From the UHGV virus genome UHGV-0099607: a stretch of DNA of 15,515 nt; one strand, written 5' to 3'. This DNA is from a virus. Below, piece after piece: positions 9,001 to 12,000 of this stretch; position 1 is the first letter of the stretch; every line of letters begins with the position of its first letter. The position numbers were made by a program.

Positions 9001-12000
9001 GAACCGTAGCCGCGCTGATGACGGGATTGTCTAGGTTTGTATTGCTTCCAGCCTTCGCTTTTGTGGCTTTCGCAGTAGCCTGACGGGTCAGTCGTGGTAT
9101 GGCGGCAACCGCGAACACGGCAGGCTTTTGGGGTTCGTGGTGGCATGCTGGCTCCAATAAAAAGCCCCGCGACGCGAGGCTTAGACAGAAAAAACACCGG
9201 ATAAGATCTGGTCATTCTTCCTTTTTAATAATGACTTCTCGAGGGCGCAATTGTTGGATAGCACGACAAATACAATATGGAATAACTGCCCATGCTACTC
9301 CCATTGCTGCACCTGCAGCCTGTTGTGGAGCACTCTGAGCACCGAAAACCCCGAGGATTCCTTCAATAAATCCAATAGCACTACACAAAAGACTGATGAC
9401 CCAGAGAATTTTCATAAACCCAAACTCCTTTTAAATAAACACATTACTAGGATAATTCTCATAAAATGTTAGTAAAGTATTTTCAGGAAAATAGCGTATC
9501 ACTGCCTATTTTTGACACTGATGCTGGGATAATTATTCCGATCGCTGGAGTTGCTCATGATGATACAGAGCGAGAATCAGGTCATAAGACCCTTGCCTGT
9601 CTTTGTAACCAGTTTTATCAACCAATTCAGCTTTACTGATTCCGGGTAAATCAAGAATCAGATTCGCAACTTCAATTGCCCTTTGGTACAACTTACCGCC
9701 CTTTTTCTCCCCATGCAGTGGTTTTACATTCTTCAGGTAACCGCTATCCGCCAAGGCGAGAAATGTTGCCCTTGGGCATATCTTCTTTCTTGACGATTCG
9801 CTTTCTGTAACCTCTGCGACAGCTGCATCCCATGCATCACGAGGAGTCATTGAGCTATCAGCCACCAAATGATAAGCGATTAAAGCAACGTGAGCGTATT
9901 GAGACATAATGCATCCATATACAAAAATCTAATGATAAGACTTTTCTAATATGAACACTGTGATCTCACATATTCTTGCAGGCCATTCAATTGGTTAGTT
10001 ATGGTTTCGATGCGCTCTCTGAGAACGAAATAATCCCGTTGAGCGGTGTCAGTAAGTCTGGGGCTGGAAGCATCATCCACGCCGGAGGCGGCGGTGGTTT
10101 TATGCTTGTCCGGACAGACTGCTTTGACGTGCAGCCACTTACGACCAGCAGAAACATCAGCACGAAGACTTTCGATAGTCGCGTTAGCATCAGCAAGCTC
10201 CTTTGTGTATCTGGCGTCGAGTTCTGCTACATCATGTTGACGCTTCTGCATGTCAGCGATTGTGGATGTGGCCTTATCGCGCTGCTCTTTGTAGGTAATG
10301 GCGTTATCACGGTAATGATTAACAGCCCATGACATGCAGACGATGATGCAGATGAGCAGAGCGGAGATAATCGCGGTTAATCTGCTCATACCTCAATCTC
10401 TCTGACCGTTCCGCCTGCTTCTTTGAATTTTGCAATCAGGCTGTCAGCCTTATGCTCGAACTGGCCATAACCAGCGCCCGGCAGTGAAGCCCAGATATTG
10501 CTGCAACGGTCGATAGCCTGACGGATATCACCGCGATCAATCATCGGTAAAGCGCCACGCTCCTTAATCTGCTGCAGTGCAACAGCGTCCTGGTTTTTCG
10601 GAGAGAAGTCTTTCAGGCCAAGCTGCTTGCGGTAGGCATCCCACCAACGGGAAAGAAGCTGGTAACGTCCGGCTGCTGTTGATTTGAGTTTGGGGTTTAG
10701 CGTGACAAGTTTGCGAGGGTGATCGGAGTAATCAGTGAATAGCTCTCCGCCTACAATGACGTCATAACCATGATTTCTGGTTTTCTGACGTCCGTTATCA
10801 GTTCCCTCTGACCACGCCAGCATATCGAGGAACGCCTTACGTTGATTATTGATTTCCACCATCTTCTACTCCGGCTTTTTTAGCAGCGAAGCGTTTGATA
10901 AGCGAACCAATCGAGTCAGTACCGATGTAGCCGATGAACACGCTCGTTATATAAGCGAGATTGCTACTTAGTCCGGCGAAGTCGAGAAGGTCACGAATGA
11001 ACCAGGCGATAATGGCGCACATCGTTGCGTCGATTACTGTTTTTGTAAACGCACCGCCATTATATCTGCCGCGAAGGTACGCCATTGCAAACGCAAGGAT
11101 TGCCCCGATGCCTTGTTCCTTTGCCGCGAGAATGGCGGCTAACAGGTCATGTTTTTCTGGCATCTTCATGTCTTACCCCCAATAAGGGGATTTGCTCTAT
11201 TTAATTAGGAATAAGGTCGATTACTGATAGAACAAATCCAGGCTACTGTGTTTAGTAATCAGATTTGTTCGTGACCGATATGCACGGGCAAAACGGCAGG
11301 AGGTTGTTAGCGCAGCCTCCTGCCACCCGCTTTCACGAAGATCATGTGTAGAAGGCAGCAGCGTAACTATCACTGATGAGTTCAGGATAGCCAGTGGCTA
11401 CGGCTCAGTTATGGTGCTGGTTAACGGACTTGAACCGCTACCCATTCGCTTACAAGGCGACTGCTCTACCATTGGAGCTAAACCAGCATATTTGGCGGGA
11501 CAGCGTGGACTCGAACCACGATAAGAAGGTTAACAGCCTTCCGTAATGACCTTTATACGACTGACCCAAATAAAAAATCCCGAAACCGTTATGCAGGCTC
11601 TAACTATTACCTGCGAACCGTTTCGGGATTGCATTTTACAGACCTCTCAGCCTGCGATGGTTGGAGTTCCAGACGATACGTCGAAGTGACCAACTAGGCG
11701 GAATCGGTAGTAAGCGCCGCCTCTTTTTATCTCACTACCACAACGAGCGAATTAACCCATCGTTGGGTCAAATTTACCCAACTTTATTCAAAAAGTCAAT
11801 ATCATGCCGTTAATATGTTGCCATCCGTGGCAATCATGCTGCTAACGTGTGACCGCATTCAAAATGTTGTCTGCGATTGACTCTTCTTTGTGGCATTGCA
11901 CCACCAGAGCGTCATACAGCGGCTTAACAGTGCGTGACCAGGTGGGTTGGGTAAGATTTGGGATTAGCATCGTCACAGCGCGATATGCGGCGCTTGCTGG

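Follow-up and report, generated by a model that had tools for sequence, protein, structure and literature searches.

The locus studied here raises the question of what two tRNA genes do for a phage when they lie between the late terminator tR' and the holin gene S, in sequence that on both sides resembles lambda. The window, by which we mean the whole stretch of DNA analysed (15,515 nucleotides of the virus genome UHGV-0099607), contains exactly two tRNAs according to an ARAGORN run over its full length, a Thr(UGU) and an Asn(GUU). These are the two genes that a first-pass annotation had recognized at this position, and both ARAGORN, the check that it had proposed, and Rfam agree with it. The cassette is already known and is not new to the literature: a paper on phage SfI describes the Asn-Thr pair and refers to previous accounts of it in phage 21, ST64T and Sf6, and standard pipelines have annotated it in many records, covering hundreds of genomes. 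What has been less clear is its purpose; the SfI authors called the role of the tRNA-Asn unclear. We argue herein that the cassette probably supports late translation by replacing host tRNAs with nuclease-insensitive ones, the supply of a reader for the rare codon ACA being a compatible second benefit.

All of the features on which the argument draws lie on the minus strand, in the order Q, pR', tR', Asn, Thr and S:

11842..12456, minus strand: Q late antiterminator, an in-frame cro'-'Q fusion (Pfam Antiterm, E = 2e-54; PHROG 127, Q-like)
11771..11799, minus strand: pR' late promoter (TTGACT, 17-nt spacer, TAAATT), which aligns with lambda pR'
11568..11630, minus strand: tR' intrinsic terminator (long hairpin, then UUUUUUAUUU), which ends the 6S-type leader
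11493..11567, minus strand: tRNA-Asn(GUU), 75 nt (ARAGORN (gtt), Rfam RF00005, covariation)
11488..11492, minus strand: spacer AAUAU, 5 nt, AU-rich (from the sequence)
11412..11487, minus strand: tRNA-Thr(UGU), 76 nt (ARAGORN (tgt), Rfam RF00005, covariation)
11295..11324, minus strand: conserved stem-loop between the tRNAs and S, GGCAGGAGG...CCUCCUGCC then GUUUUG
10846..11169, minus strand: holin gene S, 107 codons with a dual start (ORF list, alignment with lambda S)

Both tRNA genes score well above the gathering score of 29 of Rfam RF00005, with 61.5 bits (E = 1.7e-11) for the tRNA-Thr and 55.3 bits (E = 8.2e-10) for the tRNA-Asn. They are 5 nt apart and each encodes its own CCA, as had been noticed at the outset; on the plus strand the CCA ends read tgg at 11412-11414 and 11493-11495. 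The anticodon loops, CUUGUAA in Thr and CUGUUAA in Asn, have seven bases with U33 and a purine at position 37, and the T-loops, GGTTCAAGTCC and GGTTCGAGTCC, fit GGTTCRA. The Rfam alignment marks a G27•A43 mismatch in the tRNA-Thr, which leaves an anticodon stem (GUCGC/GCGAA) of only 4 bp. In the tRNA-Asn, whose anticodon stem is GAAGG/CCUUC and whose discriminator base is G73, it marks U4•U69 and U13•U22, the T:T acceptor mismatch and the 3-bp D-stem of the first-pass annotation. The identity elements of AsnRS are G34, U35, U36 and G73, and those of ThrRS are G1-C72, C2-G71, G35 and U36. All of these bases are present in the phage tRNA sequences, and none of the 20 Thr rows departs from the acceptor pairs G1-C72 and C2-G71. 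On these grounds the 156-bp cassette is predicted to encode two functional elongator tRNAs.

The surroundings of the cassette are those of lambda, in line with the earlier observation of lambda-like sequence on both sides of the tRNAs. Positions 11570-12373 match lambda 44781-43978 at 97%, and positions 10015-11410 match lambda 46361-44945 at 91.5%; the 159 bases between these flanks stand in place of lambda 44782-44944. Lambda shares pR', the 6S leader and tR' upstream, and the sequence from AACTGAGCCGTAGCC... to S downstream, but in the slot itself (inside 'orf-64') it has an unrelated segment of about 163 bp. Neither an ARAGORN call nor an Rfam match at E<=10 was obtained for this segment, and the idea that it is a decayed tRNA pair was discarded for this lack of a tRNA signal. 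Up to its T-run, tR' is 97% identical to that of lambda and folds with an energy of -29.9 kcal/mol (z = -6.1), and the tRNA-Asn starts 3 nt past its U-run. Downstream of the tRNAs, the region 11270-11345 folds with -33.4 kcal/mol (z = -3.8), and the stem-loop within it recurs in alignments of lambda, Sf6 and Kapi1. Below the cassette, the protein-coding genes of the late operon begin with S, about 240 nt from the tRNAs; the identical S gene in L283 matches Pfam Phage_holin_3_1.

Apart from pR', no sigma-70-like site was found in positions 11100-12000. Since the tRNA-Asn adjoins tR' and pR' is the sole promoter-like site upstream, expression of the tRNAs would depend on antitermination by Q, as judged from their position. 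A transcriptome paper on BTP1 set the two tRNA genes aside from the prophage genes with TPM>100 in lysogen cultures, and this listing suggests some Q-independent signal or a signal from spontaneous induction. In the window, residues 1-28 of the cro'-'Q fusion form a partial HTH, with a weak HTH_3 match at residues 4-26, and residues 29-204 correspond to residues 32-207 of lambda Q, with 175 of 176 identical by BLASTP. With residues 1-31 of Q missing and extensive deletions in the prophage, the cassette may not be expressed in the window.

The cassette itself is present in 369 of 5426 complete E. coli genomes. Each of its tRNA genes is 100% identical to the copies in phage 21, Sf6 and Kapi1, the Asn gene is 100% identical in phage L, and the whole 156-bp pair is 100% identical to that of HK446. 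The pair of phage 21 (Asn and 'tRNA-Thr21'), found also in HK446, Sf6, SfI, Kapi1 and BTP1, thus has the same tRNA sequences, and the phage 21 type shares with the window the Asn-then-Thr order, the length of the spacer and the position from tR' to the holin gene; the annotations of Sf6 and Kapi1 likewise place the tRNAs in this order. The spacer differs by one base, AAUAU in the window and AACAU in phage 21 and Sf6, and these are the two common alleles of the surveyed loci (AATAT in 47, AACAT in 49). In the window, HK446 and Kapi1 the cassette follows a Q/pR'/tR' module of the lambda type, whereas in phage 21 and Sf6 it follows one of the Q21 type; a further difference from the phage 21 system is that the prophage in the window is defective and its Q a cro'-'Q fusion.

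A generic pattern for the Asn anticodon and T-arm, run on viral contigs, gave unrelated tRNA-Asn genes besides a few Thr homologues, and lineage-specific words were used in its place for the lineage survey. The Asn gene follows directly after a terminator T-run of the lambda or phage 21 type in about 110 of 126 surveyed loci. An Asn(GUU) adjoins the Thr gene in 127 of the 132 loci having this Thr arm, and these 127 include four unrelated Asn lineages and a reversed gene order. The cassette was found in podoviruses, myoviruses and siphoviruses with unrelated late genes. The same Thr arm occurs in large arrays, such as Asn-Tyr-Thr-Ser, which resemble the arrays of virulent phages. Enlarged arrays in the slot of the cassette additionally contain Arg(UCU), the reader of the classic rare codon AGA.

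Two other systems of phage tRNAs invite comparison. The tRNAs of T5 include the same anticodons, Thr-UGU and Asn-GUU, and share a logic in which host tRNAs lost to cleavage are made good by phage versions with substitutions at or close to the cut site. They are unrelated in detail of sequence to the lambdoid pair, and form a large array in a virulent phage that includes Lys(UUU), which the cassette lacks. In Stx phages of the 933W type, the ileZ-argN-argO cluster lies downstream of pR', in the Q-controlled late leader and before the first late protein genes. This late-leader position is like that in the window, and the SfI paper carries a reference to these tRNAs; but the cluster consists of Ile and Arg tRNAs for rare codons, with no Asn or Thr and no sequence relationship to the window, and its proposed role is to serve codons in the translation of stx and late genes. 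The window, which holds only Asn(GUU) and Thr(UGU), is not a member of that cluster.

The nuclease literature suggests a reason for such a pair. The Toprim tRNase P2 OLD, which is triggered by inhibitors of RecBCD such as lambda Gam, has host tRNA-Thr(UGU) as its primary target; lambda is the classic P2 OLD-sensitive phage, and a lambda Gam is encoded by the element to which the window belongs (identical contig). A paper in NAR compared the kinetics of cleavage by P2-OLD of Asn, Lys-UUU and Val-UAC with those of tRNA-ThrU, and ThrU was cleaved fastest. Host Thr(UGU) and Asn(GUU) are also substrates of AriB, the nuclease of PARIS, for which Thr(UGU) is a prime target. The 'tRNA-Thr21' of phage 21, which is said to have a shortened anticodon stem, protected Old+ Gam+ cells and withstood purified P2-OLD (PMC12445682); in the same study, base-pair substitutions altering the CNG motif (C28U/G42A) were tested in the host tRNA-ThrU. 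Taking the Thr21 sequence from the phage 21 record and the verbal description in that paper, we found the tRNA-Thr of the window to be identical to the Thr(UGU) of phage 21 and of HK446, the Thr tRNA that protects cells and phages against P2 OLD in two studies of 2025-26. In the rescue experiments with OLD the Thr tRNA was always expressed in trans from a plasmid; we infer that native expression from the late leader would suffice for protection. According to the 2026 preprint, no viral tRNA tested rescued lambda itself, or relieved OLD toxicity in a recB deletion strain. OLD is also inhibited by a protein of HK446, Oad2, and the preprint expresses doubt that the tRNA of this phage is primarily directed against OLD.

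The features by which these nucleases recognize host tRNAs can be compared position by position. The host thrU (ACUGA/UCAGU) and asnT (GCGGA/UCCGU) have a paired CNG motif at 28-30/40-42 together with A37. The Thr (UCG/CGA, with G27•A43) and the Asn (AAG/CUU) of the window contain no CNG on either strand of the stem; about 13 surveyed Asn copies, of a Klebsiella type, do have a paired CNG motif (CAG/CUG). The determinants of AriB are U36AAUC|A41, with U39 essential, and U16. The corresponding host sequences are UAAUCA and UAAUCC, accompanied by U16. The combination in the phage Thr is UAAGCG and A16 (102 of 106 copies), and that in the phage Asn is UAACCU and A16 (118 of 120 copies). Relative to the host, both U39 and U16 are replaced in both phage tRNAs.

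A sequence of events can be proposed on this basis. Transcription would begin at pR', and RNA polymerase modified by Q would pass through tR' into the cassette. Host enzymes would excise the tRNAs from the leader, RNase P at the 5' ends and endo- and exonucleases at the encoded CCA, so that the tRNAs would build up just when the structural and lysis proteins have to be translated. Meanwhile, OLD or AriB would destroy host tRNA-Thr(UGU), the only reader of ACA in the cell, with host tRNA-Asn(GUU) as a secondary target of both. The different anticodon stems and the different D-loop base of the phage copies would remove features that the nucleases recognize, and the copies could thus escape cleavage and stand in for the host tRNAs destroyed. 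The cassette alone should not defeat PARIS, because it lacks Lys(UUU), the prime target of AriB. Nor is P2 OLD likely to be the sole selective force, since genes close to P2 old (about 85% nucleotide identity or more) are present in just 17 of the 5426 E. coli genomes versus 369 for the cassette. This rarity weakens a reading specific to P2 OLD, in favour of Toprim tRNases in general plus codon supply.

Other explanations have to be weighed against this one. It is scarcely credible that the pair is decaying passenger DNA, captured and hitch-hiking, with the Asn already a pseudogene, even though the Asn has two non-canonical pairs and the lower Rfam score, and the second tRNA of phages L and ST64T, a 72-nt derivative, goes unrecognized by ARAGORN. 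Both genes are conserved at 100% in phage 21, Sf6, Kapi1 and HK446 despite differing flanks, and the Thr tRNA was biologically active in two published assays. Covariation, assessed in 20 Thr and 14 Asn sequence variants with 500 shuffles and slid controls, tells against decay as well, in that the stems stay paired through compensatory double changes. The Thr cloverleaf has 95% of its cells paired, with double changes at 8 pairs, and the Asn cloverleaf 91%, with double changes at 6; for Thr and Asn alike, none of the 500 shuffles attained the covariation score, and the slid controls dropped to 21-53% paired. In the Asn lineage, U4•U69 is present in 12 of 14 variants and 13:22 is unpaired in all 14, while compensatory changes have occurred at pairs 5:68, 6:67, 7:66 and 28:42. 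The mismatches are kept even in a hybrid Asn lineage in which the three other arms are different. Because the mismatches are conserved across the lineage alongside compensatory changes in the stems, and relatives carry the gene at 100% identity, the earlier idea of a possibly degenerate Asn-like tRNA is not supported. The Thr anticodon arm, including G27•A43, shows no change in 19 of 19 lineage variants, unlike the acceptor stem of the same tRNA, which varies by compensatory substitutions.

This constancy also bears on another account, in which the tRNAs serve codons that the phage prefers, ACA above all, and nucleases are irrelevant. ACA makes up 13.3 per 1000 codons in the late genes of the window (20% of their Thr codons) and 11.4 in those of HK446, compared with 7.2 in an E. 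coli sample and 8.0 in the late genes of lambda, and reaches an extreme 33 per 1000 in gtrABV; the SfI paper reported the same bias (17.3 versus 7.1), and the Arg(UCU) of expanded arrays fits such a role. A comparison of codon usage in late and gtr genes, suggested in the first-pass annotation for both tRNAs, thus bears out the expectation for ACA but not for Asn, whose codons are not elevated here (39.6 versus 38.8 per 1000); the SfI authors found no Asn bias either. A cassette that moves among phages with unrelated late genes, and a conserved G27•A43 in an anticodon stem unlike that of the host, go beyond what supply alone would explain. Moreover, the OLD assays showed protection by the phage tRNA-Thr(UGU) but little or none by the host tRNA supplied in trans, which argues that the sequence differences matter beyond dose. 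Codon supply as the whole explanation is accordingly unlikely. Compensation for the integration site is very improbable. The idea was raised in the 2026 preprint; HK446 and SfI insert into thrW, a tRNA-Thr gene, and lysogeny that depends on a tRNA is documented in other phages (PMC10865867). However, thrW encodes the CGU isoacceptor rather than UGU, the idea gives no account of the Asn, a late-operon position behind tR' is wrong for a gene needed in lysogeny, and the Thr arm occurs also in the large, virulent-phage-like tRNA arrays. The identical cassette is likewise found in phages with other attachment sites, argW in the case of Sf6 and icd in that of phage 21. We rejected this explanation on the grounds of isoacceptor, position and distribution.

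The replacement of nuclease-sensitive host tRNAs, our preferred reading, draws attention to the partner that has been overlooked. Both papers on OLD pass over the tRNA-Asn, one of them calling the Thr tRNA the 'single' tRNA of HK446, and we found no experiments on cleavage of, or rescue by, the phage tRNA-Asn in the literature searched. PrrC170, considered as a system that targets Asn, was dropped, its paper showing a Lys target only. From its sequence, the tRNA-Asn would have the same anti-nuclease role as the tRNA-Thr: with no paired CNG, C39 in place of U39, and A16, it would be refractory to cleavage, the conserved U4•U69 possibly adding to this resistance, and its placement behind tR' would time the resupply to late translation. 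We therefore put forward, tentatively, the possibility that tRNA-Asn(GUU) is the second half of a two-tRNA module against abortive-infection Toprim tRNases (the family of OLD and PARIS AriB), among whose common targets are precisely Thr(UGU) and Asn(GUU). An identical tRNA-Thr has recently been shown to blunt P2 OLD, the nuclease of the classic P2-lambda interference; if the proposal for its partner is true, temperate phages would have in this cassette a mobile module against tRNases in minimal form.

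ARAGORN called exactly two tRNA genes in the whole 15.5-kb window, both of which score above the 29-bit threshold of the Rfam tRNA model. The minus-strand order is Q-type gene, pR', 6S-type leader/tR', tRNA-Asn, tRNA-Thr, S, R, and Rz:

11842-12456, minus: Q-type antiterminator gene
11799-11771, minus: pR' promoter of lambda type (TTGACT, 17-nt spacer, TAAATT)
11630-11568, minus: tR' hairpin and U-run at the end of the 6S-type leader (-29.9 kcal/mol, z = -6.1)
11493-11567, minus: tRNA-Asn, anticodon GUU (ARAGORN; Rfam 55.3 bits, E = 8.2e-10)
11412-11487, minus: tRNA-Thr, anticodon UGU (ARAGORN; Rfam 61.5 bits, E = 1.7e-11)
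11169-10846, minus: holin gene S, followed by R and Rz

The first-pass annotation had reported these two phage tRNA genes, each with an encoded CCA and 5 nt apart, between tR' and the holin gene in lambda-like flanks. The observation is confirmed in full, at the coordinates given there, by the calls, the sequence, the gene order and a BLAST map against lambda, and its interpretation was essentially right. Window 11570-12373 corresponds to lambda 44781-43978 (97%) and window 10015-11410 to lambda 46361-44945 (91.5%). The tRNA pair exactly replaces lambda 44782-44944, an unrelated segment of similar length with no sign of a tRNA even at E<=10. The cassette thus has clean boundaries and is an exchangeable module. 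Between tRNA-Thr and S lie ~240 nt of conserved sequence with a stem-loop.

The cassette is already known and annotated. Identity over the 156-bp pair is 100% with HK446 and 99.4% with phage 21, Sf6, and SfI; phage 21 and Sf6 differ from the window in only one spacer base, so both of their tRNAs are identical to the window's. In the Sf6 record the annotation runs in the same order (Q, pR', qut, tR', tRNA-Asn, tRNA-Thr, and holin) and carries the remark 'similar to phage 21'. Tandem Asn(GUU) and Thr(UGU) genes were described downstream of Q in SfI, and one or both at the same position in Sf6, ST64T, PS3, and phage 21; that study reported an ACA bias and called the tRNA-Asn's significance 'not clear' (PMC3636060). 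The pair is also annotated in Kapi1, BTP1, mEp506, and many Salmonella P22-like phages, and by PGAP in the 369 of 5426 complete E. coli genomes that carry it. In the HK446 records (JQ086372.1/NC_019714.1) both genes, at 35097-35252, are unannotated, which is why a 2026 preprint described the Thr tRNA as HK446's 'single' tRNA and overlooked the tRNA-Asn. The enterobacterial cassette also turns up in two short contigs assigned to metagenome-assembled genomes of Segatella copri and Collinsella; mis-binning of phage or prophage sequence is the most likely reason.

The Rfam alignment marks mismatches U4•U69 and U13•U22 in tRNA-Asn and G27•A43 in tRNA-Thr. The acceptor- and D-stem defects of the Asn gene had been noticed in the first-pass annotation, which suggested that the gene may be degenerate. 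A survey by a shared Asn D-arm word found at least 126 loci (at least 120 viral contigs and 6 genome contigs); among the matches listed (126 loci), 100 arrays are Asn-Thr, eight Asn-Gly(UCC), and five Asn alone, with several expanded arrays such as Asn-Phe-Thr-Arg(UCU). In 20 distinct Thr rows 95% of cloverleaf cells are paired, with eight pairs changed on both sides; in 14 distinct Asn rows the figures are 91% and six, and for neither gene was the covariation score reached by any of 500 shuffles. The odd mismatches are conserved, not sporadic: G27•A43 is kept in 19/19 phage Thr variants, U13•U22 in 14/14 Asn variants, and U4•U69 in 12/14. A hybrid tRNA-Asn beside the Thr gene at four loci (L273, L278, L279, L281) has the same acceptor stem, including U4•U69, and entirely different D, anticodon, and T arms, suggesting selection on the mismatched acceptor stem itself. 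Degeneracy of the Asn gene is therefore unsupported.

Two variant arrays deserve mention. In Salmonella phage L (L004, 1281-1352), and also ST64T and ST160, the second gene is a 72-nt Thr derivative that retains the acceptor, D, and T arms and has a different, irregular anticodon arm. Annotated as tRNA-Leu(TAA), it receives no ARAGORN call and only 42 bits from Rfam, and may be decayed or re-purposed. One viral contig (L235; Asn, Thr, Gly) has a chimeric Thr gene, its 5' half of phage type and its 3' half identical to host thrU; 3 nt further on comes a Gly(UCC) gene that differs little from host glyT. The arrangement points to recombination of the cassette with the thrU-tyrU-glyT-thrT operon of the host. 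In the 2026 preprint, Gly(UCC) ranks second among OLD targets.

P2 OLD, a Toprim tRNase triggered by RecBCD inhibitors, cuts the anticodon arm out of host tRNA-Thr(UGU), the only decoder of ACA, and so kills cells that are infected with lambda or express Gam (Govande et al., NAR 2025; PMC12445682). Cleavage relies on paired CNG motifs, one at 28-30 and one at 40-42. Phage Thr(UGU) tRNAs, which resist cleavage because their CNG motifs are altered and their anticodon stem is shortened, rescue cells; tRNA-Thr21 of phage 21 protected cells and resisted purified OLD (PMC12445682). An independent 2026 preprint reported that HK446 Thr(UGU) in trans gave 'strong counter-defense' to OLD-sensitive phages, rescuing HK97, HK542, and Bas34 to varied extent, with no rescue of lambda or of a recB deletion strain. 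Both tested Thr tRNAs are identical to the window's. All rescue data come from plasmid expression, and HK446 additionally encodes Oad2, a protein inhibitor of OLD (2026 preprint). Our numbering check agrees with the published description (PMC12445682): the host thrU stem is ACUGA/UCAGU (CUG/CAG), refractory thrT has ACC at 28-30, and the window Thr stem is GUCGC/GCGAA, in which U28-A42 replaces C28-G42 and G27•A43 is unpaired.

Codon supply is a plausible second benefit for Thr. The comparison proposed in the first-pass annotation, of late and gtr genes, shows ACA enriched: per 1000 codons, the late genes of the window have 13.3 and those of HK446 11.4, against 8.0 for lambda late genes and 7.2 for an E. 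coli sample. Asn codons are level (39.6 versus 38.8). Supplementation therefore does not explain Asn, and it also leaves the conserved structural peculiarities unaccounted for. The O-antigen conversion genes gtrA-gtrB-gtrV (50-2582, plus strand) contain 33 ACA per 1000 codons, 58% of their Thr codons. Lysogens express these genes, at a stage when a tRNA gene behind tR' should be largely silent.

For the Asn half, the phage tRNA may have the same anti-nuclease role as Thr. OLD cleavage of host tRNA-Asn(GUU), Lys-UUU, and Val-UAC was compared with that of tRNA-ThrU, which was cut most rapidly (PMC12445682). The main targets of AriB, the related Toprim nuclease of PARIS, are Lys(UUU), Thr(UGU), and Asn(GUU); the cut falls between positions 40 and 41 and depends on U36AAUC↓A41, with U39 essential, and on U16 (PMC12409363). 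Host asnT has a paired CNG motif (CGG/CCG), A37, UAAUCC, and U16; the window Asn has AAG/CUU, UAACCU, and A16. Among the matches listed, the non-host bases are kept in 118/120 Asn and 102/106 Thr genes. A survey seeded with the Thr arm found an adjoining Asn(GUU) gene at 127 of 132 loci; thus Thr(UGU) and Asn(GUU) travel together. Among these 127 are four unrelated lineages of Asn, all lacking the CNG motif, as well as reversed gene order. Co-targeting by the Toprim nuclease family offers an explanation for this pairing, which codon usage leaves unexplained. Against it, ~13 surveyed Asn copies among the matches listed (Klebsiella-type, stem GCAGG/CCUGC) have a paired CNG motif; the cassette lacks a Lys(UUU) tRNA, so it alone should not defeat PARIS; and of 5426 E. 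coli genomes, 369 have the cassette and only 17 a close relative of P2 old. A benefit from nuclease evasion therefore needs a broader tRNase set, or codon supply alongside. The lambdoid tRNA-Asn is neither tested nor discussed in PMC12445682, the 2026 preprint, or PMC12409363.

The tR' U-run ends 3 nt before tRNA-Asn, leaving no room for a promoter; no promoter-like site other than pR' was found in 11100-12000, and at ~110/126 loci among the matches listed Asn directly follows a terminator T-run of lambda or phage 21 type. Transcription must therefore come from pR' and pass tR', by Q antitermination or basal leakage. The BTP1 transcriptome paper set tRNAs aside in its list of highly expressed prophage genes, a statement compatible with some tRNA signal in lysogen cultures. 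The Q gene of the window is a cro'-'Q fusion in frame: its first 28 residues are a partial HTH_3, the beginning of a Cro-like HTH, and the remainder, residues 29-204, corresponds to lambda Q 32-207 at 99% identity. With this truncated Q the cassette may be silent here. The BLAST map shows cII, O, P, and nin genes all missing from the window, so ~75 bp separate the fusion from the divergent gene of a LexA-type repressor (12532-13227, plus strand); in this layout the pR/OR region would drive the fusion directly. The arrangement is natural: it recurs identically in independent public contigs (L283 and L284), with one metagenome contig matching at 100% across 1.6 kb before it runs on to N, sieB, ral, cIII, kil, gam, bet, and exo.

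As a whole, the window is a serotype-converting prophage of SfV/SfI-like type that has undergone multiple deletions; its lysis and early-left modules are lambda-like. Homology to SfV (1-6158) stops just short of the large terminase gene (6446-8179), so baseplate genes come almost directly after terminase, and head and tail-shaft genes appear to be missing. Across ~6150-6450 terminase gives way to SfV-type baseplate and tail-fibre genes and gtrA-gtrB-gtrV; portal, capsid, sheath, and tape-measure genes likewise appear to be absent. At 15288-15346 (plus strand) the lambda cIII thermoregulator RNA element is matched over its full length (Rfam RF01804, 88.5 bits), and just upstream, at the 15241/15242 junction, the lambda ea10 region (33523-33922) is absent.

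Past the window's right end, the same element in L283 encodes lambda Gam (1189-1485) beside bet and exo. Gam is the classical P2 OLD trigger; thus the element pairs a trigger with an OLD-resistant tRNA-Thr. What is added to a known cassette is an updated mechanism, its Thr tRNA being a published anti-OLD tRNA, and one idea reached by inference, that the Asn partner may serve the same role.
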